Counted from the stretch's first letter, positions 557 through 45,600 are shown. The stretch is DNA of 64,000 bases from Lytechinus pictus (GCF_037042905.1 NC_087245.1:10604001-10668000), one strand, 5' to 3'. Notes: generated by a model from the sequence alone, not told the origin. Numbers and translations are program-made.

Positions 557-1729
557 CCCTTTTTGACTTTATAATAAATTAATATTGACGATATCAATCT
601 ACATCTTATGCTCCCTACAAGTACTTCTAAGTATGATTGACTTTTATATGATTGAACATATACTTCTTCATTTTTGAAAATATCATTAGCCCTACAAATT
701 ATCAATACAAGAAATCAATAAAAACGGTGCAATTTACACCATGTAATGTATCTGTGCGCTTTTCTTTGATTTCAACATCGAGATTTCTTGAATGGACTGA
801 GATCTAATACAAAATGTTAAACCGGATGCAGTAGTAGAGCACCCGCCGCTTGAACAGGTGGCGGGTTTGATGCAAGGCCGAGTGATACCAGACACAAAGG
901 ACCTTCTGCCTTCTTATCAGGTGCACGATATGTATAGAATGGAGAAGTAATAATAATGTTATGTTATGCAGGGCCCGCTGGGAGAACATATTAAGAGATT
1001 TAATTATACTTAGGTCGGTAGTAGGAAATACATAGGGCATTTGATCTTTTATTTTTCATTTTAACAAATATAATCTCAAACTATGGTATACATGCAAGTT
1101 CTGAATACAACATGATTAGACTGATTATGACTGTTTTATTTTTAAAGCCGTTAATTTATACAAATAAATGACAAATATCATACTTATGTTGCATTCTCTT
1201 CTTCAAACTTCTTATTCATTTTAATCTATTCTGTCCATCTATCAACAAGTTAAAAAAGGAGGATAAACTCGAGTTCTAATGACAGTTAATGCTTTGAACA
1301 TAGAATTGATTTTGAGGGTAAATAAATGCAAACATTTATTTGATAACTACAGGTACATGTTTATATGGCACTTAATACATTAGAACAATGTATCTAAATA
1401 TATTGGATATACCTTATTATCCCAAGAGGTGATTGTAAGTAATCAAATACAGACAAGCACTGTATCATACCTCTTAAAACTCAAACATATCATTCTCAAT
1501 ATGAATACACAGGAGAATGGTTGCATTTATCCATGTCAATAACATTCCTATTTTTCAACGTTTGTAAGTTCTGAAAACATTTACTTTGTGTATCTTGACA
1601 CTACAAATTCATTCATATTATCCTCATTACAATTAATGCACTTATCTGGTACTTAAATATTTTACCTTATTACCATATTTGATCACCACCTCCCATGATT
1701 TTCCACTTTGGGAGTGCTAAATCTGTACT

Positions 1730-1830
1730 TTAGAGCAATATCTGGTTCTTGAAGCTGGACGAGAGTTGTTTATCTGGTAGCAAAATTGCATTCAGCACCA
1801 CTACTTCTGGAGGAATGCTCACATTGGTAC
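1730..1830 (-). CDS. GMPPA: GMPPA terminal exon 11b, distal duplicate (TNVSIPPEVVVLNAILLPDKQLSSSFKNQILL*)
   Basis: TTTTTTTGTCTATGTCTAG acceptor; phase-1 compatible; 101 nt ending in TAA; 20/32 aa identical to exon 11a. Minus-strand AATAAA at 1335-1340 and 1135-1140. Confidence 0.88.
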
Positions 1831-2906
1831 CTAGACATAGACAAAAAAAGTTTATAAAGTATATTAGCTCTGGTATGCTGTATAAACAGAGAATTAATGA
1901 TATCATTCTGCATTTTTACATGGCAAATCATAAAACAGCAAAGGAGCTTATTCTTCTTTCTTTTCTGGAGAAAACAAATATTCTACAAGATTATTTGTAC
2001 ATTTTCTTAATTGACTCTGAAAAGAAACAACAATAAATGAAATAAGGTAACTTTTGCTAAGTTGGCAAAAAGATGAATTCAGATTGCATGCCAAATTTCA
2101 TGACATCAAAGAAAACATAGCATCATCATCATGTATCATCTAATGTTCATACACATTCAAGATCATTCAAATGATTTTATTGAAACTGACATACTGATAT
2201 TTACATCTCCACATAAAAAAATCACCAGAACATATCTATGCAAGCTATTAGAAGATTCTGATGAGTTCATGTACCTGACATCCTAAGTTTATCCAACAAT
2301 AATTTTGATTGGTTATAAAGCTTTGCAAGTGTCTAGTAAAGAATTTGGAGGTGTTTGAATGTAGTGTATGGGAATGTAGGCCATGTTATAATACATGTAC
2401 TAATGAACTTGGTCATGTCAAATCTCTTAGGCAAGAGAAATCAGTCTCACCAAACCAAAGTTTGACTCAGAGGCAGTAAATAACACATGTTTTTGCACAA
2501 TAAGTCCTGGAATTCTTGTAACTAAAAGAGAAAATTTACTTCTAAAGCAGAATGAACTGTACATACATGTATGCAAATTTGCATTGGGTTAAACTGTTTC
2601 TTTTTGGAGAACTAGTATACATACATCAGGATACAGCTGATTGTAATGAATCATGCAAAAAGTGAAAGCTGGTTTATGCATGCATGTGATAATGGGATAA
2701 TGTCCAATGAGGTTAACATCAAATATTTAAAAAATAGTGTTACCATAAATGAACACAGGAAAAGAATTTGAACATGTCAGTTGTGTAAGTAGAGTGGCTC
2801 AGAACAAAAAATAAAGTGTACAATAATGTACATAGTTTATTATATTAAAAGAAAAATGTTAAGGCAAGCAAAGAGGAATGGGATTTACTACAAAGATAAG
2901 CTGGGA

Positions 2907-3085
2907 TCAATGCAGGTGAGATGAATGGGTACCCGGTAGGAAGAAATTCCTTGAATGCTTTGAGCGCCTAGGCAGCCCAGCTAAAGCCGGGGTAATAATA
3001 ATAGCAGGGCCCGCTGGGAGAACAGTTTTCGGAACTGAAGCGGCTTCCCTGGGTAAATATACCTGTATTATTATTATTATTATAA
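2907..3085 (+). mobile_element. SINE 3' half with LINE(L2-like)-derived tail and (TAT)n end
   Basis: Core GGTGAGATGAATGGGTACCCGG; tail GCAGGGCCCGCTGGGAGAACAGTTTTCGGAACTGAAGCGGCTTCCCTGGGTAAATATACC followed by (TAT)n. The tail start recurs at 968-988. Confidence 0.6.
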
Positions 3086-4530
3086 TGCACCTTCGGGAGG
3101 TGCAGAAGAGATGCACAACATTTGACAATTATTAAAGACCTTACAATATGAAAAGGTACATACACAGAAGAATTTAACAATTTTACAAAAAATAACTTTC
3201 AACACAATGAACAATTCATTCAATTAGTGACATCAAACATAAAATGCTGGGGCCGCGAAAGCGGGGGGTGGGGGTGTTGGGATGGCTTTTGACAAAAGAT
3301 TTTCTGCGTTAAAGAAAGTGTCGTCGTGGTGATTGCGGTTTTTCCAAAACCGTGAACACAAATTATGATTGTGATTTTTTGCATGGTCAGCCCCCCTCCA
3401 CTTTGAAAACTGTTTCACAGCCCCTGAAATGACCAGGGGTGGATGATAATATTGGACACTGGTGTTGTACACAGAATAGTAAACTACAGTAATACCAATA
3501 TATCAATCTGATACTACAAAGGCTGATTTCATAACAATGTTCACAAAGTTACCCTGGACTAAATTATGAAGTGCTGAAATGTAAGCACAATTTTTTTCCT
3601 GACATGTAAACAGAATCAGTAAAGTTAAAGTAGTTTTAGTTAAGATTTATTTTTAAAAAATACACTTTGCCCTTGTAATTTAGTGTTTAGTTTAATAATG
3701 TTAAGCACCTTAATTAGGTATCTTATTCCTTTGAGAGTGATTTAAGATAAAGATTTTAAAGATTGGACAATATTAAAGCTCTTCTGCTGTTACATGTAAC
3801 TAAAACTGAAAAACAAAATCTGAGAACAAAAAAGTAATTCACTCATTTTATTAATACAAACTCTCAATGATGCATGCTTTGCCACATAATACAAAATTCA
3901 AGAAAAAAAGCACAACACAATAAAAAAGCAATAAAACAATATGCAAAAACAGCATTTTCTAACTAAAGCAAGCAAAGCAAGTCTTCCATTTTACTTGAAG
4001 AATTCTGATTATGAATACAGCATTACTATTAAAGTTTAAGCTACATGAATTTGGAGTATTATTAGATAGAATTTATATTCCTTTGAGAATTATTCAAAAA
4101 TACAGAAGAAAACAAAGAAAGCTACTGTGTCATCAGATTTTCCTAAATGTTTACATTCCATCATGCAGCATCACAATGTGGATTCTCTATCCTAGTCAGA
4201 TAAAGTAACAACCACAAATTGCTCTTCAAAGATGATTTTTGAGCATTGTGAATAGAGTTTGAAATTTTTAGTAGCGTTTCTGGACATGATAATTTTGTTC
4301 CCGACGCTCTGGCGCTTCAGGTAAGCTCCTCGTCGCAACTAAAAATCTAATTATACATTCAATAACATATAACAAATAAATTCATACTTCATCATAAAAA
4401 TAAAACAATAACTAAACAATGAAAACCTGGTGATATACGAGCTCAAAACCATAATAAAGACTATAATGACCGATACATCCAGATTGTAATAGTGCAGAGC
4501 TTTGACAGCATACCTACATGTAAATGTATG

Positions 4531-4631
4531 CTAGAGAAGGATCTGGTTTTTGATGCTGTATCCTAGCTCTTTATGAGGCAGGACTATGGAGTTGAGGATG
4601 ATAACCTCTGGTGGGATCACAACCTTTCCAC
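4531..4631 (-). CDS. GMPPA: GMPPA terminal exon 11a, proximal ([32 protein letters not shown])
   Basis: ATCTAG acceptor; phase-1 compatible; 101 nt ending in [14 protein letters not shown] motif. A minus-strand AATAAA lies downstream at 3847-3852. Confidence 0.93.
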
Positions 4632-4679
4632 CTAGATAATATCGGTAGTAGAGTGAGTAAGGTAAAAATAGCTACAAAG

Positions 4680-5252
4680 TATTATTAACCGTATCAGACA
4701 TCTGAGCAGGGCAACTTTGATACATTGTTGCCTGCTAAAGACTGGGAGCGAATGGCCGGTCAATAAATTTCCAATTGTTTATCTACGGGCCCAATTTATT
4801 GCCCGCTCAGAAAAGTCAATGAGAAAATGCGTGGAAATGCAGTGGGCAATAAAAGGCAGCGCTAACATCCGGGTATTCTACGCGTCCTTGAACCGCGCAG
4901 TGCTCACGTCACAATGTTCATCAAGTTGAGACAACGCTGGATACTGCGTCCCCAGGCCAGGGACGCGTCATTTCAATTACGTCACAATGGTTAAGTTCAG
5001 AGGCCCAGTCTGCTCAACGTGACAAAATAGATTCCCATTCTTAAACTCTAATAAATATCTAAATTTTCACGATTTTTGCTCTAGATGTCTGATTTGGTTA
5101 ATAATAGCAATATTGACTGGCCTGGGGGCGAAAGGACATATATCGCCCTCACTAAATTGATATCACCCTCGTCTACGACTCGGGCGATATAAATAGAGTT
5201 TGGGCGATATATGTCGTATCGCCCCGAGGCCAGTCAATATTGCTTTATTATC
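4680..5252. repeat. Double-inverted-repeat element, copy 1 (possibly Crypton-like non-autonomous)
   Basis: TATTATTAACCGTATCAGACATCT pairs with AGATGTCTGATTTGGTTAATAATA (~5083-5106); a second hairpin AATATTGACTGGCC...GGCCAGTCAATATT follows directly. Confidence 0.6.
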
Positions 5253-5590
5253 ATATCTTCTGAATGCATCAAGTCATTCAAGACATTGAGAGTAGTGGTA
5301 ATAATAATATCGACTTTTATATCCCTTCTATAAATATCCATGAGTATTTTAAATAAATAATTGGACATTTGGTACTTTTGTGATCCAAGATAAGTTTAAT
5401 ATATTCTATAGCATGCTCAGCTTTGCCCCCCAAAAAAACTATTTAGTGCTCTCGCCGAGCCTCAGGCACATCAAACAGCGGGTTGTTTCATGGACAGCCC
5501 TTGCAATGTAGCTGCGCAGAAAATGATCAGATTTTGCGTAGGACAAAATTACCAAGGTTTATGGTTCAAACTTAAAGGGATATAAAAAAA

Positions 5591-6160
5591 ATTATTAACC
5601 GTATCAGACATCTAAGCTGGTCATTTACAAAACCGTATTGCCCTAGATTTTCTGAATATCGGGAAGGACTAGGTATATTACCAGGGGTATTTGTATTTTG
5701 CTCGGTCTCTGTGCGCGTATTGACATTGCATGCAGAGACGACGCAAAATATACCTTTGTATTTTCCCTGGTCTCACATCCGGGTGGGTAGAAAGAGATAC
5801 GCGTAACGCGTCATATTGATCTGCGCAGCACAATACACGTCATAATGACAATCAAGATTAACAAACGCTGGATACTTCGACATTTCAAATACATCACAAT
5901 GGTAAAGCTTAGAGGCACAGCCTGCTCAACATGAAAAAATAGAATCACATTCTTACAGGGTAAAATATCTAAATTTTCATGATTCTGCTCTAGATGTCTG
6001 ATATGGATAATCATAAAAATATTGACTGGCTCTTCTTTCGGGAAACATCAAATATATTGCCCTTAAAAAGAGCCATATTGCCCTTGTCTAAAGACTCAGG
6101 CCAATATGATTCTATTGCGAGCAATATATTTGGTGTTCCCCTCAAGGCCAGTCAATATTA
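5591..6160. repeat. Double-inverted-repeat element, copy 2
   Basis: Same 5' motif, the AACGCTGGATACT block and the same terminal hairpin as 4680-5252; the middle has diverged. Confidence 0.6.
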
Positions 6161-7546
6161 TACAATTATACCCAGTGTTTCTTTTGATAATATTAGTAGC
6201 AATATTCACATATAAAATAGTACTTGCAAAACCAACCACAGATGAATAATTCCTTACTGTACTTTCTCAAAGCATAGTATATTTACATAGCACTGTCTTT
6301 CTAAAACTATTTTATTTTGCGGCACATGAGTAAAAATAACAAATGAGAATGTGGATTGGTGCACAAGACTGGAATTGTTAGAAATACAAGAATGAGATAT
6401 TGAAATCTCATATAACGGCATACCAATTCACTGGTAAATTACTTCCAATGAAGGTAATACATCTAAAATACTTCTTTGTCATGGAGAGGCAATATGTTCT
6501 ACTGAGGAGGACACAAGAAGCAGCATTTTGAAACTTGAAAAATATTTGAAAGTATAATGATTTAGTCCCTTTCGAATTTATTTCACAAATTCTTAGCTAC
6601 AGCATTATAAAGCAGACTACAGAATAAATCAACAATTATGATACAGGAATGGCGGTACTGTAGAAAAAAAAGAATTAATCAAAAGAAAATTAGATAGAAA
6701 CAATTTATTATATTATGAGAAAGAGAAAAGATTTTAGTATGTATTATATCAACTTGTTAAAACTTTCACTGAAAAATATGAGGATTCTAATAGGCCTACA
6801 CAATCAAAATGTACATATTGGTTGAGCTTTGAAACCAATGTGAGTATGAAGTGAATTATTAATCACACACAATGTGATAAAAACATACAGGAAAAGTATT
6901 CTATTTACCATAATAGGTATTCAATTTTTAAGGATTAAGATTTATTGAAAAATTGATATGATTTTTAGAATAAGACAAATCAAAACTTATAGGACGAATT
7001 AGCAGTCATTTACATTGTAGCAACAAAAAAAAAATCTTGAATAAATACATCATGCAATGACTTGCATGGCCCTATAATGAAATTACCTATAAAGCCCAAA
7101 AATGTATGCACATTTTATTCCTTGCCAGGAACATGATACGAATGATGATCGTAATACATGTATATGCAGGGTAAAATGAGCCATTTTCTTCATGAAAGTA
7201 TGCTGCATTAGCAAAATGGATTGACCTCTTGAAATGATTATCACTTTTCATGCACTTACAATGAAATGAAGTAAGAAAAATGGGTAATGTTTAATAATTA
7301 AATAGAGTTCTTTATTTGAACTAATTTGAACTTCCATGCATTTACAATACAAAGATTTTTTTTAATGAAATGCTTGCAATTGTGATTAAACCCACAATTT
7401 GATGGAACCTTGATAAATGAAACACAAAAAAGCTAATGAAAATAATATACATGTATAAGATGATTTCGAATCTTACCATGTGTTTATAGCAATTAGATGT
7501 ACTATGGACATTGGAGGGGCATAAAAATATGAACACTTAATCTTAC

Positions 7547-7718
7547 CCAAGATAGTAATAGATGGGTTGAGTCTTCCTTCTCCATTGAAGAGTGTACCAC
7601 TATCAATCTTGGCATGGTCTAAGTTGGGGTTAGGGTCATTGGGTGTACCCTCAACTCTTGACCACGCCCCAACCATGCTGTTCCATCCAATGATACTATG
7701 CAGGATGCAGCAGTGATC
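7547..7718 (-). CDS. GMPPA: GMPPA coding exon 10 ([32 protein letters not shown]...PSITIL/G)
   Basis: GATTAG acceptor, G|GTAAGA donor; 172 nt; contains the GMPPA-type [10 protein letters not shown] insertion. Confidence 0.95.
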
Positions 7719-8362
7719 CTAATCATATAACAAATAAGATACACATGATGATCTCATATCTTAAATTAAGTCCACTTAATAAATTCAAACTTTCCTTGTA
7801 GTGCATAGACATCACGTATAATGGTTTAGTGGTTTCATAAAGCCTCCAGAATTGGACAGGGCCATTTTGACAACTAAAAAGTGACAAAGTAGGCGGGGGG
7901 GGGGGGGGGTGTTGACTCAGTCTACCCAGTGATTTAATCTACCCAGACCTTGGTAATTCAATACCTAAAATCAATCAAGTTGGTACACATACAGCCTCCA
8001 TGTATCTACAATCTATGAGAATGCCTTGACATAGCTATATTGTTTAAAATCTTTCATAATTTATACACTCATGCATATACAGTGTATGCAAATTTCATGA
8101 AATTCTATTGCTTCTCATTTTCTTTCTTATTCTAAACATCAATTTCATCGCACTGCTATGTTGGATGTTCTTGAATACTGACCACTTATTAGATTTCAAG
8201 CAAATTTGAAAACCATAAAAATTTGTAAAGTGGTGCCAGAGAATATGAAAATAAACGGTATTTGTGACTTCCTTTCTTTAACAACAAACATACTGATTCA
8301 GTGTGTGTAGTAGATTCATACCAAATATCGGTTTTGATCTTAACTGCTTTGATTTGACTCAC

Positions 8363-8455
8363 TTGTAGTGTAGCACCTTCTAGAACAATAGATTCTCTGA
8401 CTCTGACCCCAGCTCCAATCGTTGCATTAGCTCCTATTGTTACGTTTGGACCAAG
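8363..8455 (-). CDS. GMPPA: GMPPA coding exon 9 ([31 protein letters not shown])
   Basis: TTTTAG acceptor, CAA|GTGAGT donor; 93 nt; hexapeptide repeats. Confidence 0.95.
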
Positions 8456-8898
8456 CTAAAAAAATACAAATGTAACAGAAAAATATGCAATAATAATTCA
8501 TAAATTCCAATCATATTACCATATAATATTGACTATATTAGAGTATATGTAAGTTAAGTTCTATTTCCCAATTATTCATAAATTTATATACATGTATAAA
8601 AAGCAAAATAAAAAAATAAATAACAAAGAGAAGAAAAAGAGAAGATAAATGAAAGAGCACCAAGAACAAAAAAAATGAACAAGGAGGAGGAGGAGGAAAA
8701 GGACGGACACACGGAAAAAAAGAGGAGGAACAACCATAACCCTGACCCCTGGTGCCTCAGAAATATTAATTGAATCAAAAGCACATTCAAAAGTGTTGAT
8801 CATAATTTTTATTGAGGAGAACATAGAAGATGGTGTATCAGATTAAAATATACCCCACAATAGCAGAAAATCTAACAGAAGAAGAGAAATAACCTTAC

Positions 8899-9046
8899 TG
8901 TAGCTGTTGGATCAACGGTAGCAGTAGGATGTATGTAGACATCTCCTCTAATCGATGGCCCTCTTTCTGATTTAGGATTAGATAATCTATCTGGATGTGT
9001 TTCATGGTACAGACTAAGATATAACCTGTTAGCATAGATTGCTGAC
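8899..9046 (-). CDS. GMPPA: GMPPA coding exon 8 ([13 protein letters not shown]...[16 protein letters not shown])
   Basis: Lies within ORF 8872..9072; CTATAG acceptor, ACA|GTAAGG donor; 148 nt; start of the left-handed beta-helix. Confidence 0.95.
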
Positions 9047-9791
9047 CTATAGCATAAAAGATAAGAATACAATGGTACATAGGCGCAGTGAGTTAGACCA
9101 ACGTCAAAACCAGTGATCTAGCTGTGGCAAGCCAATGTCAAATAATCTGTAACAATGAATATGGAATTTATCAGCATTTTCAGTACTGTATATGTGTTTA
9201 AACATGAGTTCAATAATAATACTTAATTTAATTTTGACTTGCCTTTTAAAGTGATACTAGTAAAACTTGCATTGTGTGATTTTTCATTTTAAAAATGATT
9301 CAAGTGGTATTGGTCAGAATTAGTTAGTCAGAATGGCAATTTTTTGTAAGTGTTTTTTAAAGAGAATACTTTTGAATACACTATAAAAATAGCTGTACAT
9401 AAAAATGGATGTACCAACAAAAGAAAAGATTGTTTTGATAGTGTAAATTCAACCTATTTTTTTCTTTATTACATTGAAATGTGTTCTTCCTGAAAACCAA
9501 AATATTCCCTTATTTTGAATTCAGATCAATTAAAAACTGGATAAACTCTTGTGTTAATACTTGATACTCTATATTCATGAACAGGATATGCCTACATAGT
9601 GTGTTCAACTTTGGAGCTAATTCGATTATCCCTTCTAGGATAGCTTTAAAGACTTTTAATCCTCTCTTTTCACCTTCACCCAATAGTGGGAGGGTAAATA
9701 AAGGCATGTCAATAGACTGGTAAACTTTAATCCCTTATTTCTAAAAAGTAGGATTCTATGGTGGAAAAAGAAAACATTCCTATCTATTTGA

Positions 9792-10396
9792 AAGACAAGT
9801 CCACCCCCAACACAAAGTTGACTTGAATAAAAAGAGAAAAATCCAACTAGCATAACACTGAAAATTTCATCTAAATCGGATGTGAAATAAGAAAGTTATG
9901 ACATTTGTAAGTTTCGCTTAATTTCACAAAACAGTTACATTCACATCCCGGTTGGTATGCAAATGAAGGGACTGATGATATCACTCACTCACTATTTCTT
10001 TTCTATTTTATTATATGAAATATGAAATATTACAATTTTCTCCCTGTTGTCCTATGAAACAAAGTTTCATTCCTCCCTGAACATGTGGTATTACCATTGT
10101 TTTAACATTTTATGGTTCAGTTGAGTTGGTCCTTATTGTCAAGTCTGTAAAAATTGAAATATTGTATAATTCAAACAGTAAAAAGCAAAAGAAATAGTGA
10201 GTGAGTGACATCATCGACTCTCTCATTTCCATGTCACTGAGTTGTGCATATAACTGTTTTGTGAAAAATAAGCGAAACTTTAAATTGTCGTAACTTTCTT
10301 ATTTTACGTCCGATTTTGATGAAATTTTCAGCGTTATGCTTGTTTGACTTTTCTCTATTGATTAAAATTAATATTTTTCTGGGTTGAACCTGACCT
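9792..10396. mobile_element. Kolobok-type MITE, family A copy (opposite orientation)
   Basis: GACAAGTCCACCCC ... GGGTTGAACCTGACCT; shares CACTCACTATTTCTTTT and AAGTTTCGCTT blocks with the other copies. Confidence 0.8.
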
Positions 10397-10628
10397 TATA
10401 TAAGGGTTAGGATTTTCCAATATTCTGTAGGCAAGTTATATATCGTTTTAAACCTGAGATCTCCTTTTTCCTGGTGACTGGTTTGCCATGCCTGGTTACC
10501 TATTTGACTTCAGATTCAGTAAACTACGATGCATCATATCATTTTCAAAATATAATTGCAGTAGTCTCCCTGGCCACAACAAACAAATCATGTATCATTT
10601 AGAGATCTCAATTAAATTTGTTTCTTAC

Positions 10629-10757
10629 CCTGCAGATTTAATTTGGCTCCAGAAGTTATTTGTCTTGAATGTGAAGAGTTTTCCTGTGCTTGCTAGCGGT
10701 GCTAAGATGTCTTGTTCAAGGCGTATCGTGTCCTTTGATGGGAATAATGGGTCTCCA
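10629..10757 (-). CDS. GMPPA: GMPPA coding exon 7 (GDPLFPSKDTIRLEQDIL...FWSQIKSA/G)
   Basis: TAACAG acceptor, GG|GTAAGA donor; 129 nt; IRLEQD and WSQIKSAG motifs. Confidence 0.95.
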
Positions 10758-11563
10758 CTGTTAACGAAAGACAAAGAAATTAAAGAACCATAATCAAAGC
10801 AGGTATGGGTAACATATTTTCGAAGAAATATTCTTTATGGCATTGGGAGCAATTGTAAAACAAATATTGCTGATAGTAAAATATATTGATGCTTGGTACA
10901 AATATACATAATTCTTGTGTGAAAAGAATTTTTTCACAAAATCCATTCACCAATCAGAAAAAATATTTTCAGGACATCAAAGAAAAGCATTAAAAAAAAA
11001 TAACTTGAGAATGAGAGCTGGAGTAAGAACAATCTCAAGATGAATTCCACCCAAATATGAGATGAAGTTCACTCAAAAGATCAAACAAGTGACTCATCTT
11101 ATATGTCATCAAAACTTAGGGTTAAATCAGGTTTTTACTCATACACTTTAGAAATCAATCAATTTGAAATATAGAAATTACCATTTAAATGAGATTCTAA
11201 ATTGTATATCATGTCATGAATCAAAGAGCCAAGAAATTGATTTTAGACTCTACATTGGATGTACATTTTGCATAGAAAACAAGTTTTGTAGGTAAAACTT
11301 TACGCCCACAACAAGGTATGTATAGAATTTGCACTTAAAATTAAATTTTTGAGCATTCATTCACCTAACTTGCAAGCATAAATTGATGTATTACTTTAGA
11401 ACAAAGAACCTGGATGTCACAGATTCAAACTTTAAAGATGCACACGATTTATTCTTAAAATTTTCTTTACACTAGTCTAGACAACCACGCTGAGATGTCT
11501 GTTTTCTTTTTCCCAAAATGTGGTAGGTATGCTATCTCATTATTGGAACTAAGATGAACCTAC

Positions 11564-11694
11564 TTGAGTACTTCATCCTGGTTTTGCTGGAAAGCTTTTC
11601 CAATATGCTGAAAGATCTCTGGAGGAAAGACGTATAGTCCACAATTGATCACAGTGCTAACAAACGTCTGGGGCTTCTCCACATAATGCATGAC
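11564..11694 (-). CDS. GMPPA: GMPPA coding exon 6 (VMHYVEKPQTFVSTVINCGLYVF...DEVL/N)
   Basis: TTCTAG acceptor, AA|GTAGGT donor; 131 nt; conserved EKP and INCGxY motifs. Confidence 0.95.
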
Positions 11695-12243
11695 CTAGAA
11701 AAACATGGAAAGGAATATGTGATCCTTAGAATAAGAATCATTTACATAAATGTATCACTTTATAAAACTTAGTACAGATCCGCTATAATTGATATTTATA
11801 TTGTTCATTATTAGACTTGGGCAATAAGCGCTCTGATTCAATCCCGTAATGGGATAATCACATACCGGTAAATAAAGTTCAAACACACAAGAGATTACTG
11901 TTTATTCCACATTCACTGGTGCCTCTTGCATGTCTCTTGGACATAGAACAGATTAGAAACTTAAGGAATGCAAGTCGAATCATATACATGTACTCTTTTC
12001 ACAGCTGACATTGAAATCAAAATCTATACCACAAGGCCACACAAACCATAAAGGAAAGAAAATAAACAAATAATTTTGAGGGCTGTCTTAATTAAAATAA
12101 TAAGATTTGTAATGTAATCTGACAAAGGGTCTAAAAAATATTATTGAATCTTACAGAATATTAGCACTAAAATCCATTATAAATCTAAGATCTAGTCTAC
12201 AATTGTGAAGTAAATGTTGGATAATGGAAATACTTTCACAAAC

Positions 12244-12303
12244 CTCATGTGTATTCTCATTCTCCACCAAACATCCATATGAAAGACTTTGATCCCTTGT
12301 TGC
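12244..12303 (-). CDS. GMPPA: GMPPA coding exon 5 (ATRDQSLSYGCLVENENTHE)
   Basis: CCATAG acceptor, GAG|GTTTGT donor; 60 nt. Confidence 0.92.
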
Positions 12304-12672
12304 CTATGGAGAAAAAGAAAAGAAAAAAAAAGTCCATGAAACTGAACTTCTAACACTGAAATGGCTTTCAAACAGACAATGATCGAATACAAATCTAGAC
12401 CTGTCAACCATGAAAGATATGAAATTGGGAAAAAACATGCAAGGTTTGGGGAGGGCATATGAGAGAATGCCCTTGTAAAAATATACTCATTTTTCATTGC
12501 ACCCCCTTCGAACTTTACGCCATCACCTCTTGGAATAATCATGTCCCAATAGCAGTTGGCAGGTACAGTATGCTTACATCCGAAAGGGGGAGATTATCCA
12601 ACTGGTTGAATACTTTCAAATAGTGTACATTTGACATACAAATTTGAGCGTCTATCGTCTTCATAAACTTAC

Positions 12673-12865
12673 CTCGGTTGACAGCATTGTATAGTGAACA
12701 TCTTGTGACACCTTTTCATGGAAGTCCCACAGGTCAGCCAGAGGGAACTTGCAGCACACGTCACCATTGAAGACTAAGAACCCTTTGGGCTGTCCACTCA
12801 GTATCTGGTCTCTAAAATGGTAGAGCCCTCCTGCAGTTCCGAGAGCTGTATACTCCTGAAGGTAT
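12673..12865 (-). CDS. GMPPA: GMPPA coding exon 4 (YLQEYTALGTAGGLYHFRDQIL...YTMLSTE)
   Basis: Lies within ORF 12661..12876; ATCAG acceptor, GAG|GTAAGT donor; 193 nt; LGTAGGL motif. Confidence 0.96.
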
Positions 12866-13169
12866 CTGATGATCAAGAATGTCCATACTGTAATATGGTA
12901 CTGGTATTCTACTCCGATTAATCATACCTAATTGTTAGGTTGTATTCCCATTAGATTTTTATGATAGGGAGGATAACAGAATGATATTTGCAAATTTTTG
13001 GCATTCAATACTTGCTGGTTACCACAGTGATAAAAAGATTACTGTTATAATATGTTGGTTTAATGTTGGAACTAATTCTTCGTGAATCACAGAGTAGAAA
13101 AGATTACATTCTTTCTTTTATAACAATCAACTTTTCTGAACATGGACTGAATAACAAGTGTAGTATTAC

Positions 13170-13273
13170 CTGATGTTAAACTTGAACTCTCTCTGTGTTG
13201 ATGTGATGAATCTGTTGAGAGAGTCACTAGGCTGATATGTTCCAATCAACAGAACATCTTGGATATCTGGAAG
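13170..13273 (-). CDS. GMPPA: GMPPA coding exon 3 (LPDIQDVLLIGTYQPSDSLNRFITSTQREFKFNI/R)
   Basis: TTTGTAG acceptor, AG|GTAATA donor; 104 nt; in frame. Confidence 0.93.
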
Positions 13274-13850
13274 CTACAAAAAAGAGGAAAAAATCGAAAG
13301 ATATCACAGAACTGTTTATTCAACTTAAAAAAAAATGTATCCACCTCTATACATATTGTAGATTTATCAACAATCGTAGCTTTGCATAAATTAAAAGTAG
13401 GGCATTAAAAATGTTGATTGGATGAGCAAAATTGACATGATGAAAATAACTGATTCCTTTTAACTACGGTACAGTAGGATCCATATCAGAAAGGGAATTT
13501 CCTGAGCAATTCAAACTTGGAATGAAATAATGCTTATGAACAAAAAGGAAAATGTATGGATGCTCAAAATAAATTATTTGGTGGGTCTCAAGAAGTCAAT
13601 TATTTACTAACTTACATGCATGGCTGGGTATTCAACATTTTGTGATCAAATGCAACTACCCAAATAAACACAATCTTTATTTTTTTTCATTTTCGATTTC
13701 CATATACACTTATTGACAGAGGCATGTATTTCATACTTGCACATGATTGTAAAATTTGTTGGAAATCACTTTATTCACAAAACTGGTCTAGACCACGTAT
13801 TGACAAAATATTGCTAAATGTCTTTAGAACAGACACAAAAAATATTTTAC

Positions 13851-13948
13851 CTTGCTGCATGCTTCTATGTGATGATAGATGATGGGGAATCCAGCAACTG
13901 GAAACAAAGGTTTTGGAAGCTCTAGGGACAGAGGTCGAAAGCGAGTAC
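13851..13948 (-). CDS. GMPPA: GMPPA coding exon 2 ([32 protein letters not shown])
   Basis: TTTCAG acceptor, AAG|GTAAAA donor; 98 nt; NTP-transferase N-terminal motif. Confidence 0.95.
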
Positions 13949-14106
13949 CTGAAATTGAAGGTGATTTCATGAAAAGAATCTTTTCTACGTACAACTACAA
14001 ACCTACATGTACAAAATCAAAGTGTGATATTACATAATTCAGGCCATTATTAAAGGTCAATAAAGCTCACTCATTAGCTTTATGTAAAAATCTATTACAT
14101 AAGTGA

Positions 14107-14152
<46 letters not shown>

Positions 14153-17100
14153 GAATTTTTGCTTGCTTGCTCACTCACTAGCAAATTTGTGATAAATTTT
14201 GCCCAATACGCCGTACTATCTAGCCCCCTCAAATTTTTTAGCTCGTTACGCCACCTGACTACCCTTAGTGCTAATACTTTACCATGAGAAAGGGAAATTA
14301 TAAGATATTGAAATGACAAAAAATGGCGGGAAATGGAAAGAAGGGGCATACAGAAGCGAGAAAGGAAGGGAGAAGGGAATGGGCCAAAAGCTATTGGAAA
14401 ATAAACTTATAACAGACAATGAAAAAGACGGATTCAATAACAAAACCGGGTTTCCGAAGATTGAAAATAAAGAACGAGAAGAAAGATAAATTGCGTTATA
14501 GAAATGTGTTTATTATTATAAGCTTGCTAAATTTTATGCAATAATTAACAGTCGCAACCAGGACAAAAGGTCCTTATACGACCAAGGGCCCGGGAAGGGG
14601 GGCTACTCAGATAATAACATAATTGGCCCTACCTATATGTGCCACACCAAATTCGAAAATAGGCCTTGATGGTCTGGAACTAAATCTTGGTCTCTTGGAT
14701 CAACGATTGCTATTTAAACTAAAAATGCCCTGGAACTGACACATTAAAAAAATGAGGGTCTCTGGAACTCACATCGTATATGGTAGCGGCAATGGGACAA
14801 GAAACCAGGTACATTGTATTGAGGGTCTCAATCTAGAACTATTTAATCTACTACTTGATTAAATTTTCATCTAAAAATTATTATTTTCTGGCTCGCTTCG
14901 CTCTCTGGCAACTTTTTACAATTTTTTTCAAATCTATATCACCCATGATTTGATTAGAAAATCTGCCATCTGTAAGGATTAAATTGGATTAATTAATATC
15001 CAGAGGTCCCAGGGCTACCAGTATACATGTAGCGCGGGGGTAACAAGGGTTTGGCCCATGGTGCCGAAATGTTCTAGGAGGAAAGGAAAAAATGTAAGAT
15101 CATTGTCAAAATCTCAAAGTTAGATTTTCATGAGAAGTCTTTTTCTCGCTCGCTTTGCTCACTCGGGACTTACATTACGTAACTTTTATCTTCCACACGC
15201 GGCATGTGCTGTGCCCCCTCTTATAAACCCCAGTTACGGCCCTGTACAGACTCACTCACACAAGCATTCGAGGTTAGCTATACTAACCTCGCACAACGCA
15301 TGTGATTTGACAATGAATTTTTACGTTTTCATTCATCACACGAATGTGAGGGAATAAAACATGCCAAAATCTTCTACATCTATTCACTTCATGAATTTCA
15401 ATCTTATCAACTAACTTAATTTGAAAAATATGGTCGAAATTATTTATAAAAATGATTTTTTAACGTTTACCTCCAAACTCAGCCGTCCGAAGATCCCTAA
15501 TACTATGGTGGAAATTACGCAAACAACAATTGAAATGCGAATTTTCCTATCGAACACTCTCGATTCAAGTCGTCGGCGCTGATGGCGCTACATCATAAAA
15601 TACCGCTGAACAGCGAAAAAAACAGACAAAGAAAAAAAATGCTGAGCACCTAGAACGCAACCAGCAGTACAGCTGATCCGACGTAAACAAGCAAGTTTAT
15701 TAAATAATATTGCCCGCCCTCTCTATGCGTATTCCGGATCAGGCAATTTAATCCATGCCTTCTTCGACTTCAAGAAAAATCATCGATATAAATTACCATA
15801 AAGACAAAGAAGAAATGAAATTGACTTCATATCGTCACTCATTCAATGAACAAGGTTATGAATATATAACCTTGTTCTCAGTTATATCTCCATGTGCAGC
15901 AAAATAAGGGTGGCAATGTTTGGCTTATTTTCTCTTTTTCTTTGGGACAAATGCTTGATTTTTTTATACTGACAGTTTCCATTACACCGATTTGTCATAC
16001 AACTTGGCTCTTAAGTAAATTTGATTCTTTAAATTATTTTTTTCTTAATTAAAATTAGAGATCAAAAATGAAAATTTTCTTGCCATATTACTTTCCACCA
16101 CAAAAATATGCCAAAAAATCAAGTTTTTGAGTGCTCTGGTGAATACAAAAATTATTCCCAAGTTACTAATGAATAAGAAATTGTAACTGTATGGAAATTT
16201 GTAATTTTGGTCACAAAAGTGACATTTTAATGATTTTTTAAAGTGTGTGCTCTGTACAACATTGGCATACCATAGTCCTACCTGTAGATTCCCCACAGGC
16301 AGGATGGTTGCAGTGAACAAGTGCATATCGTTTGGTAGACCAAAAGCTTCAGTCTCTGTATTTTGGTTGTTCCGCTGAACTGCGTTGGCTCACTCACCAA
16401 TACATAGACTGAAGAGCTTGGAGGCCCGTACGTACAGACAACGTATAAGCAGTAACGTTAGATCTAACATTCTGCAGAAACCCGATTTTCGGATCGTTTT
16501 TTGTACATAAAATGACACATTATAAAAAAGGAATTACATCCAAATTGACGAAAAAATATATAAAATTCAGAAATATTATACCTTAGTCCGCAGTTACTGC
16601 TAATTCCTTTCAAATGATGATCAAAACATAGTCATCTTCGATCCTATCGTTGGTCAACGTAAGTTGTCATCTTGGATGACGTCATCATCATTACAGATGT
16701 ATTTACCAGTCGCTATATATTTTGCGATTTGTGCCGCTGCTTTGCGCTTGTAGATGTGCGTTCAGAACTTGTCGCTCGCATTTATTCGGCAGGATATCGA
16801 AAATTCTAATAGAAAAGCCTTGATAAAAGCACAACTCGTCGAACGTAGAGGGCAGCAACACACGGCTGCCATTTTTTCCTATCCTGCAGAAAAATTCAAA
16901 AATAAGGAATAAATCATTGGTAACGTATATTTTCTTGCAATATGTATAGTAGCAAAAGAAAGATTAGAGTCTAACAAAAATAGTGGGCATTCGTTCAAGA
17001 TATGTCATTTAGAATAAAAAATAAAATAAAAATCTAGACAAAACCCGGTCGCCCGAATTGGAAGAAATGAATACACATGGAGGCTCGCACTAACACACTA

Positions 17101-19956
17101 CCGTCGGTGAATGGGGATGATAGTAAAATGTCAGAAATTGTTAAATAAAACCCCAGAAACGATGGTTATTCCTGTCTAATCGTTTGGGAGGTTGGGAGGT
17201 TTCATATCAAAAGCTTATCTGATTTAAAATCTCTCTTCTATTATTACTAATTTAAAAAAAATTCCCCTGAAAATGTTCCATGTGCCATGCCAGTGGTTTT
17301 CCTGTGCACTAAATGCACCCATAGGTTGCACAGACACGTCTACATTGATTTCGATATAAATAATATAAGTAACTAAGCATCATTATATTTATAAAACAAA
17401 AAGGACGCCTTGAATAAATTAAAGGCCAATAAAAGGCAATAAGCCTAGACTAGAGACTCACGTCATGTGACGACTCGCCCTGGATTTGCATGTACACGAT
17501 CCTATCGTGACAACAGCTGTCACAAGAGGGGATGAAAACACCAAATTTTGAAAGAAAAGAACCAGTGAGTCATGGCTCATGCCCATTGACATTGTCATGA
17601 TTGTAAAATTTGTATTTTGTACATTAATTCATCACTGTTCATTAATCACTCTAAGCACCAATGCTATTAATTACTGTGTTTAAAAAGTGAGTGCACGCGA
17701 ATTAAATGTTGGACTTAAATTACTAGATCTTACCATGGAGCTCCATGACGAAATCTATTCTTAAATTAGACTCTAGATATTACTAAATTGAAAAAAATGT
17801 ATAAATAGTACTCGCCTGGTCTTTTCTTGGGGTATTGAAGCCTCTTTGTCCAGAACTTGCTCAACTTTTGCGGCAAATTTTGTCGCCATAGGGTTGTGCA
17901 CATTCTCGTTTAATACTGGTTGTCACGTGACACGGCAATGTCGTTAGGCTGTTTGGCCTGTATTCAAGGCGTTCTATCCGTTATGATTTTATATTGAATG
18001 AAGCAAATTCCATCAGGTATAGGCCCCTATCAAGTCAATATCGATACAGGGATCGAGAGGGGGGGGGGGGGTGGAGCCAAAAATTTCCCAGTCACATGGT
18101 ATAAAAATGATATTTTTTATGATTGTCCACGATCATTAGGGCAAACCCGTGTGTGGCAGTACGGTAGCGTGATGAGTAAAAAAAAATAAAATAAAAGAAA
18201 GAAAGAGGGCCAATGTAGGCATACATGGCGCGTGGGAATAAAGTTGCTTTATATGTTCCAAGCGAGTGAAGCAAGCGAGAAATTTTTTTTTCGTGCAAAT
18301 CTAAATTTGAGATAGATATCTTAACTTACACTTTTCCTTTTCTTTTCATTAATTCCCTTCATTTCTTTTTTATCTTGGTTGTAGAACTTTCGGGGGCCCC
18401 TAGGCCTAACCCTTCCATCGTGTACCCCCAGTGCAATATCAGCAGGTGGGTCTCGATAACTCTGGATATTTAGCAATTAGACCTATTTATAGAAAAACAT
18501 AACGTTAATGTTTTGACCCCTTCCCCCCAAAAAAAGGAAAAACAATTATCAACTAAGTTATATACATCCCCCTTTTCTCATTTCGCTTTTTATTTTCTCT
18601 ATTCCCTCCTTATATTTTTTTGGGGGGAGGGACCTTTTCGGGGGGCACCGCCCCTAGCTACGCGCCTACCAGATGAAGAGGCGAGCGAGCAAAACCTTTG
18701 TCACTTTTATTACAAATATCAATTTTGCAATAGATTTTGACATAACATTCGGAATTATTCTCGCATGCATTTTTCTTTCCTTTTGCTTTTTTATGGCCTT
18801 TTATTTCTCTTCCCTTTCTCTTTCTGTTTTTCTTTCTTTCTTTCTTTTCCTTCCTTCATTCCTTTTCTCTTATCCCGTTTTTTTTTGTGTGAAATCCACT
18901 GGACCAGGGATCAAGGGCCAGCCTGCATGCCCCCGGCGGTTTACGCCTCTGCCGTGGATGTAAGCTATATATACGCATGATCTTAATCTTCATTATGATT
19001 CAAACTATATAGAGGCGCATCCAAGATTTTCCAAATTAAGTAGGGGGGGGGGGCGGGGTGAATTTTCTCAAGTAAAATTTGACAACTCCCAAAAAAGGTT
19101 CTTACTAAAAAAAAAAAAACGGTCATTATATTGTCTCGTGTAAAGTTTGACAAGTTAAAAAAAAATGGTCACTCAAAGTGAAAGTCATTTTGTCCGCGTA
19201 ATATTCGGCAAGCCCCCCCCCCACAAAAATAAGAAAAGGGAAAGTCATTTTGTCCACGTGATATTTGGCAACCCCCCCCCCCCAAAAAAAAAAAAAAAAA
19301 AAAAAAAGGTTTTAACTATAGGCCTAGCAATGATCGAAGGTCATTTTGTCTCGCGTAAAATTTGACAATTTTTTTATAAAGTTGTCACTAAAAAGAAGGT
19401 AATTTTTTCCACCATTGATTATATTTGGCAAGCCCCCAACCCCCACCCCCATAAAAAAGTTTGTCCCTATAAGTGATGTATAGAAAGTCATATTGTTAAT
19501 TTGTTCCCAGTAAAATTTTGAATTTGGCAATAAAAAAAAAAGGCCAAAATGAGAAAAGAATATGAACGAAATATCCCCATTACAAATAATGCTGTACGTG
19601 ATTCTCATGAGGGGGGGGGGCACATAACTAGTATTAACAACATATTTAATTCCAAAATGTTTACTATAAATCTCAAAAGGGGGAACGGGCAGAAATGCTC
19701 ACCCCTCCCCCCCTCCCCCCCCCCCCCGCCACTGATTCCAATCAATACTGACTTTTCTCTGCAATACTAATGCTTTGAAATCAAGATACTGAAGATTGAT
19801 ACGCTTAACATAAATTATGAACGTCTGACAAAAAGATAACCAACCGATCACCTGACCAGTACGCGTATCACTTCGGAGTTGATCACTCGTCGCAGGTGGA
19901 ACGCTCACCGAAAATCAACAAAAAGGGCCTGAAATGTAAGTTTAACAATAATCCAG

Positions 19957-20267
19957 GGGCCGATTGCACGAAAGGGTCTTTCCAAGGACCGTCTTTCGTG
20001 TCAACCATCTTTTATGATACGCCATGTGAAACGCATTTCAAATAAATTATCTGCAAATATATTTTATTTGTCCGTTAAAATAAACAAAATATTTGTTTAT
20101 AAAATGATGTGATATCTCATGAAATCGTATAAAATTTGATTTAAAAGCAAGCTTACGAATTTTATTTGTTTATCATAAATTTCAGAAACACCCCGCTTAT
20201 AGCGCATCATAAAAGATGGGCGACACGAAAGACGGTCCTTGGAAAGACCCTTTCGTGCAATCGGCCC
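19957..20267. mobile_element. PIF/Harbinger-type MITE (~310 bp)
   Basis: Perfect ~46-bp TIR GGGCCGATTGCACGAAAGGGTCTTTCCAAGGACCGTCTTTCGTGTC; flanks CAG/CAC. Confidence 0.8.
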
Positions 20268-20757
20268 CACTTTAATTTCAACTAGGCTAGGGCCTAGGCT
20301 AGTATATTTAGAACTTTCTCAATTAAATGCGACCAAATAAAAGTTATATCTTAACACTGCAACTTGTATTAATGCGTACATTTACCAAAGTCTTTGGTTG
20401 GAAATCAGAACAGCATTGTCCAACCCATAATTTGGGTAATGTCGCCTATGAGGTCCATACATGTTAATGTTTGGACCTCATTGGACAATTGGTACTACTA
20501 CTAGGAGTGTTCATTAATAATAATTAATATTAAAAAAAGACGTTAGACCTAAATTTGGGCCGTAATTTAGAGGACTTGGGTCTCATTTAAACCCACACCC
20601 GTTTGGACTATGAATAGGCGTGTTGCCTAGAACTTAGAAGAGTGTCTAACGTTGGGCCTAAATTACAACCGTATGCCTACACTACAACAAGAAAAACATG
20701 TGGGACTGAACAAAAAGTAGACCTTCTGGCTTCATTGAAACAGTCTAGTATGATTAC

Positions 20758-20797
20758 CTTTTTGCGGCCCTCCAATTAATATCACAGCCTTCAGCAT
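20758..20797 (-). CDS. GMPPA: GMPPA coding exon 1 (MLKAVILIGGPQK/G)
   Basis: ATG at 20797-20795; 40 nt; donor G|GTAATC; carries the GMPPA-type GGPQKG signature. Confidence 0.95.
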
Positions 20798-22188: not shown

Positions 22189-22791
22189 AGGTCAAGTCCA
22201 CCCTAGAATAAAGTTGATTTAATAAAATAGAGAAAAATAAAACATGAATAACGCTGAAAACTTCACCAAAATCGGATGTAAAATAAGAAAGTTATGACAA
22301 TTTAAAGTTTCGCTTATTTTCCACAAAACAGTTCTATGCTCAACTCAGTGATATGCAAATGAGAGAGTCGATGAGGTCACTCACTCACTATTTCTTTTGT
22401 TTTTTATTGTTTGAATTATACAATATTTCAATTTTTACGAATTTGACAAATAGGATCTCCTTGCTTGAATCACAAAATGTTAAAATAATGGAATTTCACA
22501 TGGTCAGGAAGGAATGAAACTTTGTTTCACATGACAATGACGAGAAAATCAAAATATTTCATATTTCATATAATAAAATACAAAAGAAATAGTGAGTGGG
22601 TGATGTAATCAGTACACTCATTTGCATACTGAACAGGATGTGCATATAACTGTTTTGTGAAATTAAGCGAAACTTTAAAATGTTATAACTTTCTTATTTT
22701 ACATCCGATTTTGATGAAATTTTCAGTGTTATGCTTGTTTGAATTTTCTCTTTCTATTCAAATCAGCATTTTGTCGGGGTGGACTTGTCCT
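22189..22791. mobile_element. Kolobok-type MITE, family A (603 bp, TTAA TSD)
   Basis: TTAA|AGGTCAAGTCCACCCT ... GGGGTGGACTTGTCCT|TTAA; long imperfect palindrome. Confidence 0.85.
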
Positions 22792-26199: not shown

Positions 26200-26797
26200 A
26201 GTTCAAGTCCATCCCAGGAAAATGTTGATTTGAATAGAGAAAAATCAAACTAGCAGAATGCAGAAAATTTCATCAAAATCAGATGTAGAATAAGAAAGTT
26301 ATGGCATTTTAAAGTTTCCCTTTTTTTCACAAAACAGTGATATGCACAACTCGGTGACATGCAGATGAGTCGGTCGATGATGTCCATCACTCACTATTTC
26401 TTTTGTTTTTTATTGTTTGAATTATACAATATTTCATTTTTTACAGATTTGAAAATAAGGACCAACTTGACAGAACCATATATTATTAAATAATGCTGAT
26501 TCCACATGTTCAGGGAGGAATTAATCGTTGTTTCACTTGACAATGAGGGGAAAATTAGAATATTTCATATTTCATATAATAAAGTACAAAAGAAATAGTG
26601 AGTGGGTGACGTCATCAGCCTCCTCATTTGCATACTGACCAGGATGTGCATATAACTATTCTGTGAAATTAAGCGAAACTTTAAAATGTCATCACTTTCT
26701 TATTTTACATCCGATTTTGATGAAATTTTTAGTGTTATGTTTGTTGGATTTTTCTCTTTTAATTCAAATCAAATTTTTGTTGGGGTGGACTTTTCCT
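26200..26797. mobile_element. Kolobok-type MITE, family A copy
   Basis: TTAA|AGTTCAAGTCCATCCC ... GGGGTGGACTTTTCCT|TTAG; internal sequence matches 22189-22791. Confidence 0.82.
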
Positions 26798-36582: not shown

Positions 36583-37144
36583 GTGATGTCACTTACTTTT
36601 TTTTATACAATGAATCAAGTTTTGTTTAAATATTGAGGTTTCATGTATAAATGATATTCAACCTTATAGCACTCACGATGATTACTAGATAATGTGAAAT
36701 AGAATGTTAAACTTCTTTGATTTTTTTAACAATGTCACGTTGGACTACGCTCTATTACATTATTATTGTCAAAAAAAATTGGTTGCCTAAAACCGATTAG
36801 TTGTATGAACAACGAAACTAGATCACTAAAAGAAGATTTCACAGTTTAACTTTCCTTAGAAAGCTACGAATCTGTATATGAAATGACATGATAGGTTATT
36901 CATGTCGTAGATCTTAATGAAATAAACTGTACTTAATGGTCAATTGACACATTTTATGTTGTCTCTTAAGTGGGTTATATCAAATGCATTCTTATAGAAT
37001 CAGGGAAAAGTCTCTTGTACAGGATGACGACGATCTTTTCAAAGTGAAAAAAATATCCGCGTTTATCACAATATAGTAGCAATAGCCTTATCAGTAAATG
37101 TAGTTTCTTAAAGGGGTTTTGTGTGTGATTACTCTAACTTTCAG

Positions 37145-38344
37145 ATGCAGTTACAACCGAAAACATCGCAACAACTTTAGAAACAGTATCCCAGTCAACA
37201 ACATCCCCATCCCTGTCGACATCTCATTATACAGACCCAACCGTTTCGTATTTATCTGAGGACCAAACTCTCTTGACAACAATGCAAACAGCATCAACTC
37301 GAGGTGTGTCAGGGAGTCAAGAAATGGTCGAACACTCTACTGGGTCAGTTCAAGAAAGTTCCGCTTCATCTTCATCAGATATGTTGTTTTCAACTGATAC
37401 AATAGACTTAACAACGATGGAAACAGCTCCCACATCAATGCAGCTGATGGACGATGCACACACAAGTGAACTGGTAACCACTGACACTATCCCTGCAACT
37501 TCACCCGTTGTTTCAAAGATTTCCGCGCACATGACATCCAAGGACACCACTTTTGAGATGATTGGCACAGTAACTCCTGAAGATTCATCTCAATATTCCA
37601 CACAGTCAAACCTACAAACGACTATTACTCCTTCATCAGGGTCCACTATTCCATTGACATCAAGTGACACAACCTCCCTACCATTGCAGACATTAACACT
37701 GACGACAGAGACAGACTCAAATAGACAGTCTGAGTCAACTCTAGAAACCACCACAGAGTCCACTGTTTCATTGAACCCAAGTGATACCAAGCTGACAACG
37801 GAGGAAACGAATGTTGTTACAACAGAAGTGAAAGATGAGGTCACTTCTGGAACGATCAAGATCACACACATGTACATGCAGACGTCGGGTAACCCAACAC
37901 AGGCCTCCTATGAAGACACAACCCTACCATACGATAGTTTTACTTCACTCACTTCAAGATTATCTTCAGACATATTTCATTTGACAAACATGGAAACATC
38001 ATCCAATCCATCAGACGCACCGGATGCACAAACCTCGCAAGAATGGGAAGAGCCCACAACATTTATTGCACAAACCCTACCAGAGATATCAGAGGACCCT
38101 GAAACGCCACCTTCATCAACATCGGCGATAGGTGCATCCATCCAATCGCAAACTCACGATGCCTCCACCACCCAAGGAATGATGAAGTCAGTCTCTATTA
38201 CCGCAACATCTTCAGATTCGAATACAGCACTAATCCCAGCTTCCGAAGCAACAATTAGAAGCACATCATACTCAACAATAGAACCAAACGTTGACACCAC
38301 AGAGTCCGAATCTACCCAGTTACCCGGCACAACCCATCCTGCAG
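37145..38344 (+). CDS. CUB/mucin protein exon 4: S/T-rich mucin-like stalk (~400 aa)
   Basis: TTTCAG acceptor, CAG|GTAATT donor; 1200 nt, phase 1-1; same frame as ORF 37273..38388. Confidence 0.9.
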
Positions 38345-38751
38345 GTAATTTCTTTTCTTTAACATGTTTAATCCAGTTCATACTTTAACAGTACACAGCC
38401 ACATTCGACCTATAGATGGAAACATGATTCTGTTACTAATAATTCAATACATTTACTATGATAAGATGTTTCGGAAAAAAAATGAATATTTTACACGTTC
38501 TATGAATAACAGCAAACGAAATAATATTTCTGGTCGCAATTAAACGAAAAACGTGAGTATTGAAAAACCAGATGATACACCTCTGATACAATTTTGATGA
38601 CTGTTTGTGTTCTTGTCATGAAATGTTACATGTTGCCCTTCCTGACATGCCTGACGAAGTTTCACAGGCCCACCACTCACCACTACTATAACAGTATGAT
38701 ATTTTTTTAAATTATATTCCCTTTCCCGATTTATTTTGCACGTTTCTCCAG

Positions 38752-38908: not shown

Positions 38909-39264
38909 GTAAGATGATTAACTTAACTGTAGTAAAATGAGTCATTCGATCATATTGTCAAAAATATTATTTTGATGAGGACTTGTAGGATTGCTACTCC
39001 AGGTTAAATGTAATAAATAATTCTCTCACTCCCTTAAGTACAAATGCACTTACTTTCTAGTAGGTAAGGATGGACTTGATATTAAAGCCATATGAATTTG
39101 ACATTTTGAAAGTGTTATTTACTCTCATAGGTTTAATTTACACAAAGGTTAAGCAAAACATGAATGTTATAAGATTAAAAAGGAAAGTTTCTCTCACAAA
39201 GTATTTTCCATATTTCTTAAAGTCCTCATTTGCATATTCGCATCACATTTTTTCCTTCATGCAG

Positions 39265-45399: not shown

Positions 45400-45600
45400 A
45401 ATGAAATTCACTAGATTGTTAATACATTCATAAACTTCATGTCGATTTTTCAAAACCTCTCTACCATTCCTACGATGCCTATTGCTATTCCGAATTAATA
45501 CGTTGGATATACCATAGTTAATAAAGTAAGATAATATATACATGACATAAAGTATAAAATTAGTTGATTTAGAGTCAGAACACAGTACATGTATAGCTTG

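Follow-up and report, generated by a model that had tools for sequence, protein, structure and literature searches.

Organisation of the GMPPA locus

The window analysed here is a 64-kb stretch of Lytechinus pictus DNA, and all positions are counted from its first letter. The GMPPA gene occupies positions 1000-20797 on the minus strand, starting with an ATG at 20797 and comprising ten constitutive coding exons followed by two C-terminal exons, hereafter called A and B. The coding exons were recognised as open frames and by exon-by-exon matches. Coding exon 10 (7547-7718, minus strand), whose rank as the tenth coding exon, given by the first-pass annotation, follows from the start ATG at 20797, ends in phase 1 (TTGG/gtaaga) and carries the donor common to both C-terminal exons. 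Its translation was 100% identical to Lytechinus pictus GMPPA, with isoform X1 as the top match, and the junction between exons 9 and 10 (7718/8362) was covered by 8 reads in RNA run X20, 8 reads in run X21 and by assembled contigs. GMPPA was found once in the 811-Mb assembly (368 contigs), as were segment A and segment B. The sole further match in the assembly displayed 39% identity and lay on a different contig; it is probably GMPPB.

The urchin protein aligned with human GMPPA (7d72_A) over its full length (residues 1-422 to 1-420, E 2.5e-173, 579.9 bits). The alignment with human GMPPB (7d72_K) scored 168.7 bits and stopped at residue 356. By these alignments, the urchin protein is nearer to GMPPA than to GMPPB, the catalytic subunit. 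It shares the domain order of human GMPPA (PDB 7d72, 7d73, 7d74), and the C-terminal tails are similar. Profile searches matched the exon translations to PF00483 and PF00132, and the full-length matching proteins to PF00483, PF00132, PF25087 and PF25084; an Rfam search of the window returned no RNA family. Mammalian GMPPA is described as a protein devoid of catalytic activity that binds GDP-mannose and inhibits GMPPB (PMC11228364). By homology, urchin GMPPA is predicted to lack catalytic activity and to act as the regulatory subunit of mannose-1-phosphate guanylyltransferase that binds GDP-mannose.

Two homologous C-terminal exons follow exon 10

A first-pass annotation of the window had reported two 101-nt exons downstream of exon 10, with equal acceptor and phase and each with its own stop codon, and this description was confirmed by the sequence. 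Exon A (4518-4631, minus strand, 114 nt) follows a tctAG/GT acceptor, the AG of which lies at 4632-4633. Its coding segment of 101 nt (4631-4531) encodes the 32 residues of the A-type tail and ends with a TAG stop at 4533-4531. The exon continues for 13 nt after this stop up to a donor (CAT/GTAGGT, with the GT at 4516-4517) that joins A to B. Exon B follows an identical tctAG/GT acceptor (AG at 1831-1832, minus strand); its coding part of 101 nt (1730-1830) encodes the B-type tail TNVSIPPEVVVLNAILLPDKQLSSSFKNQILL and ends with a TAA stop at 1732-1730. Terminal exon B then runs into the shared 3' UTR (1000-1729, minus strand), the lower bound of which is approximate. The two exons are therefore adjacent, alike in acceptor and phase (phase 1), equal in coding length and clearly homologous, as expected for tandem-duplicated exons.

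Recomputing the translations gave exactly the figures of the earlier annotation: 20 of the 32 residues are identical between the A and B peptides, and 14 of these 20 are encoded by different codons. At the nucleotide level the two segments share 62 of 101 positions, with 21, 28 and 9 of 32 identical at codon positions 1, 2 and 3, respectively. Third codon positions thus seem close to random, or saturated, and second positions nearly fixed, a pattern that fits an old duplication maintained under purifying selection. The proposal of an old, diverged pair was borne out by these codon-position identities and by the conservation described below. The earlier annotation had also assigned a downstream AATAAA to each exon. 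AATAAA/ATTAAA hexamers lie after B at 1340, 1225, 1140, 1053 and 1004. The assignment is weaker for A, where the first such hexamer past the stop lies 678 nt downstream, at 3852.

Exon A is spliced to exon B

Splicing was analysed over positions 1400-9200 using four runs carrying the same species label: X20 and X21, two runs of raw RNA reads of which about 6% each was read, and X1 and X16, two contig runs, the kind of which was guessed. The junction between exon 10 and exon B (7547->1830) was found in 3 reads of X20, 2 reads of X21 and contigs with a depth of 169.2 in X1 and 30.3 in X16. The junction between exon 10 and exon A (7547->4631) was found in 1 read of X21, in none of X20, and in contigs with a depth of 25.6 (X1) and 22.5 (X16). 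Both of the junctions proposed by the first-pass annotation were therefore present, and both copies are used in mature RNA; each also corresponds to a RefSeq isoform.

A third junction, connecting A to B (4518->1830), was detected in 1 read of X21 (0 in X20) and in an X16 contig with a depth of 22.5, and was not listed in X1. This junction is a canonical GT..AG, and the X21 read has the same orientation as the remaining GMPPA junction reads; support amounts to this one raw read, with a shorter side of 21 nt, and one contig. The X16 depth was 22.5 on both sides of A, which fits a single contig running through exon 10, A and B. Downstream of the A donor, between 3488 and 4531, the depth did not exceed 0.1 in the raw runs, 6.5 in X1 (where the A contig has 25.6) and 3.2 in X16 (22.5), values that do not rise above the background of the intron at 1922-2704. 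Raw-read depth was low (around 2.5 on exons), and this loss of signal after A is convincing only in the contig runs.

The splicing of A to B and the near absence of RNA past the A donor make it most likely that A is a stop-carrying cassette exon comparable to that of KRAS 4A/4B; a terminal exon with a poly(A) site to itself is improbable. For the same reasons, the two mRNAs appear to share the B 3' UTR. Along this 3' UTR, RNA depth reached position 1400, the edge of the compared stretch, and one X16 contig extended 464 nt further. The occurrence of mRNAs containing both exons means that A and B are not strictly mutually exclusive, and no transcripts ending at a poly(A) site belonging to A were seen in the four runs. 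What was found, on thin read support, is a stop-bearing upstream copy spliced to the downstream copy, the arrangement of KRAS 4A/4B.

The A form was the minor one in the four runs. It accounted for 1 of the 6 raw reads spanning the exon-10 donor junction, and for about 13% (X1) and 43% (X16) when estimated from contig depth. The differing share in X1 and X16 is only a hint of regulation, and the sole one for the possible tissue- or stage-specific switch on GDP-mannose supply suggested by the first-pass annotation.

A and B tails are found across ambulacrarians

The A tail is identical, letter for letter, to the C-terminus of RefSeq XP_063951962.1 (L. pictus isoform X2), and the B tail to that of XP_063951956.1 (isoform X1). 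A search with exon 10 retrieved 209 relatives at E <= 0.001, the best 120 of which were listed. Comparing C-termini within protein clusters, A/B pairs of the same length were identified in 13 ambulacrarian species representing all five echinoderm classes and two hemichordates. The echinoids with a pair are L. pictus, L. variegatus, S. purpuratus and Diadema antillarum (two separate records); the other species are Amphiura, two crinoids, Apostichopus, Acanthaster, Patiria, Asterias amurensis, Saccoglossus and Ptychodera. Of the 12 isoform pairs compared, 11 show no difference ahead of the final 32 residues; the exception is Diadema, the two records of which come from different contigs. One tail type only was found in Asterias rubens (A), Diadema setosum (B) and Glandiceps (B; one record looked up). 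P0141, a JGI record of 56 residues in the Asterias cluster, was discarded because its sequence is unrelated to GMPPA.

No A/B pair was present in the non-ambulacrarian clusters examined (amphioxus, lamprey, mollusc and nemertean), each of which displayed a single tail. This was the case for the Branchiostoma (13 members), lamprey (11), octopod (8), Liolophura (4), scallop (9) and Lineus (2) clusters, and for the 15 members listed out of 61 in the oyster cluster, one of which is a truncated fragment and was not comparable. The vertebrate, amphioxus and lamprey records examined thus have a single C-terminus, in contrast to the two found in sea urchin. Isoforms within the non-ambulacrarian clusters differ in length elsewhere in the protein.

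These length differences are part of a second, independent type of GMPPA isoform variation seen in many animals, with variants of approximately 5 to 20 residues located elsewhere in the protein (423 versus 431 residues; 421 versus 429). They were seen in records P0155 and P0242-P0244 (Ptychodera) and in the mollusc, nemertean, amphioxus and lamprey clusters. In Ptychodera, an unrelated 8-residue length variant combines freely with the A and B tails, resulting in four isoforms.

The first-pass annotation knew of no description of the arrangement. Both proteins are, however, already in RefSeq as isoforms X1 and X2 in L. pictus, L. variegatus and S. purpuratus, and the pair is recorded in ten further ambulacrarians; the practical novelty of the protein pair is modest. 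In the literature, judged by titles and abstracts, we found no paper on GMPPA C-terminal isoforms and none on GMPPA in sea urchin.

Age and conservation of the two exons

A maximum-likelihood tree was built from 43 exon peptides aligned over 32 columns, of which 14 were of type A, 16 of type B and 13 from outgroups. All 14 A-type exons grouped in one clade with a support of 99/97, and the hemichordate A exons were placed inside it. The B exons did not form a single clade in the free tree; they fell into three groups among poorly resolved outgroups. Forcing the echinoid A and B exons into one clade was rejected (p-AU 0.0007). The equivalent constraint on hemichordate A and B exons was not rejected (p-AU 0.066), and constraints enforcing B as one clade (p 0.048) or A plus B as one clade (p 0.037) gave borderline values in the AU test. 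With 32 columns, the echinoid A/B rejection is the only firm result among the constraint tests.

Two positions discriminate between the tails with no overlap: position 24 is Y or F in A and non-aromatic in B, and position 26 is I or V in A and F, Y or C in B. The 13 outgroups are B-like at positions 24 and 26 and A-like at positions 14, 16 and 19; the human GMPPA tail likewise has H19, as in A, and an aromatic residue at position 26, as in B. The A end would be the derived state, its aromatic residue having moved from position 26 to 24. A derived signature, [YF]-S/G-[IV]-K-N-Q, is common to the 14 A-type tails, and no species shows a disrupted frame or an altered length.

Across 12 species, the A exons have a mean pairwise identity of 0.78 and the B exons one of 0.60, compared with 0.80 in the 57 constitutive residues that precede them. 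At the sequence level, A appears about as conserved as the preceding constitutive residues, and B less so. The A/B pairs in 13 ambulacrarian species, the A clade and these identities support the earlier suggestion that both copies have been maintained, and this over a very long period.

In Asterias amurensis isoform X2 (P0140), the B tail is altered at otherwise invariant positions (P6S, L12Q, F26C, K27C and N28D). A. rubens has an A-type record only, and B may be decaying or under relaxed constraint in the Asterias sea-star lineage.

Alternative explanations for the exon pair

The first-pass annotation had taken A and B for genuine alternative last exons that use separate poly(A) sites and therefore differ in 3' UTR. 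Both segments do contain a stop codon, an AATAAA/ATTAAA hexamer is present at 3852, 678 nt past the A stop, and a poly(A) site specific to A could serve elsewhere than in the four runs compared. This interpretation is nevertheless unlikely given the canonical A->B junction, recovered from two independent data sets, and the RNA depth between 3488 and 4531, which remained at intron background (at most 3.2 against 22.5 in X16 and 6.5 against 25.6 in X1). A second possibility is that exon A reflects splicing noise or an unproductive event with no protein function of its own, the B form alone being of consequence. The minor share of A, in reads as well as in contig depth, would be compatible with noise. 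The derived signature common to all 14 A tails from five echinoderm classes and two hemichordates is not, nor is conservation on a par with a neighbouring constitutive exon (0.78 versus 0.80), nor the combination of saturated third codon positions, retained second positions and a frame and length intact in every species. We therefore consider this possibility very remote.

It could also be argued that the hemichordate and echinoderm pairs arose by separate duplications followed by convergence, so that the pair would be younger than the ambulacrarian ancestor. The AU test leaves a hemichordate A plus B clade standing (p 0.066), the B exons are split in three groups and the alignment has 32 columns only. 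Against this, the free tree places the hemichordate A exons within the A clade with a support of 99/97, and these exons have the aromatic residue at position 24 together with I or V at position 26, a combination found in none of the 13 outgroups. Separate origins are thus quite improbable.

Proposed architecture of the switchable C-terminus

The architecture that we regard as likely is one in which A is a 114-nt stop-bearing cassette and B the shared terminal exon, the pair being a tandem duplicate of the last coding exon kept since the common ancestor of echinoderms and hemichordates, or earlier. According to this model, the coding part of the last exon would have been duplicated in tandem in or before that ancestor. 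The downstream copy B would have stayed the terminal exon with the 3' UTR, and the upstream copy A would have turned into the cassette. Skipping of A would join exon 10 to B and yield a protein ending in the B tail; inclusion of A would halt translation within A and leave the B coding part as 3' UTR. A and B would exclude each other only in translation, through the A stop codon. Both routes are expected to give proteins of equal length differing only in their last 32 residues, which correspond to the end of the left-handed beta-helix domain.

Nonsense-mediated decay usually follows a 50-55-nt rule. Since the stop of the A-containing mRNA lies 13 nt before the last junction, this mRNA should escape nonsense-mediated decay. 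Collectively, the data presented indicated that the switchable GMPPA C-terminus proposed by the first-pass annotation is real and ancient: both junctions, the RefSeq isoforms and the deep conservation bear it out. They also hold a lesson for annotation, as what look like two terminal exons can be a stop-bearing cassette and a shared terminal exon.

Comparison with known systems

Alternatively spliced tandem-duplicated (homologous) exons have reportedly been described by Kondrashov and Koonin in 2001, Letunic et al. in 2002 and Abascal et al. in 2015. Similarly to these, the GMPPA A and B exons are adjacent, homologous, equal in coding length and phase, and deeply conserved. Unlike exclusive exons of this type, A and B co-occur in mRNA, as indicated by the A->B junction, and are exclusive only in translation.

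The closest parallel is KRAS. Exon 4B is described as being present in both KRAS mRNAs, and as untranslated if exon 4A, with a stop at its 3' end, is included (PMC5945503). The KRAS splice forms are reported to be conserved over more than 450 million years, and exon 4A to derive from NRAS exon 4 by exon shuffling (PMC9882654). Like KRAS, GMPPA has a tandem of two homologous coding exons at its C-terminal end: the upstream member is a stop-bearing cassette, and the downstream member is part of both mRNAs. Unlike the exon-shuffled KRAS 4A, the GMPPA copy looks like the product of a local tandem duplication. The tails also differ in nature, the GMPPA tail ending the beta-helix of a metabolic regulator and the KRAS tail targeting the protein to the membrane, and in lineage, with the GMPPA pair found in ambulacrarians and the KRAS pair in jawed vertebrates. 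The GMPPA A/B exons are thus a new, well-conserved instance of a known splicing arrangement.

Possible role of the two tails

GMPPA sets the supply of GDP-mannose for glycosylation, and loss of human GMPPA is reported to cause a syndrome of alacrima, achalasia and mental retardation. The beta-helix domain is described as having a role in subunit contacts (PMC9168903, citing Zheng et al. 2021). We infer that the two tails could alter the packing of GMPPA against GMPPB or against other GMPPA subunits, and hence feedback inhibition. A tentative extension of this idea, which we would not put higher than a possibility, is that ambulacrarians have kept for roughly half a billion years a splice choice between two GMPPA beta-helix ends, and that this choice tunes GMPPA-GMPPB packing and GDP-mannose feedback via exon A. 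Among the chordate and protostome records examined, none showed a comparable splice lever.

Structure predictions using 29-row alignments gave a mean pLDDT of 71.5 for A and 75.7 for B, and the last 9 to 21 residues fell below 50 in both, so that the models are uninformative as to the tails. Two tails kept by selection in all echinoderm classes and in hemichordates point to the functional importance of the final beta-helix turns, and the A and B tails represent a natural pair of variants for probing these turns in the GMPPA-GMPPB assembly.

Other features of the window

Several repeat-like stretches were observed within or close to GMPPA. In the intron between A and B, positions 2705-3487 displayed a several hundred-fold RNA depth, mostly in the orientation opposite to GMPPA. 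Of the 3330 reads placed in X20, 3057 fitted only partly, and many molecules started at 3063. Local transcription seems a less likely source than an abundant expressed repeat family of which this stretch would be a fragment; Rfam gave no family for it. Positions 4680-5300 and 5576-5836 are also repeat-like: RNA reads occur there on both strands and differ from the window at many fixed sites. The former stretch starts only about 50 nt upstream of the exon A acceptor. A short interspersed element was found in both orientations at 9891-10025, 10110-10298, 22287-22517, 22559-22693 and 26565-26699, and its copies can be recognised among the stop-to-stop ORFs by open frames that are nearly identical (ESYD.LKFRL...THYFF..LL.E.Y).

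Further along the window, the plus strand carries what looks like a gene for a mucin-like protein (37138-38388, 39221-39610, 45914-48253 and 49350-49673). This region matched CUB pieces (PF00431, E 2e-06 and E 5.6e-04, the latter just under the cut-off) and PAN (PF00024, E 4.2e-05). It contains long Ser/Thr-rich open frames and about eight tandem copies of a unit of approximately 47 residues, SNIITERSETVNPVSQEYVSTELSSISSQTTPNAGTTADSEDGTGSS. Within the same region, a 295-residue open frame on the minus strand (44773-45660) matched the zinc-binding tail of reverse transcriptase (PF13966, E 7.1e-10), identifying it as a retroelement remnant.
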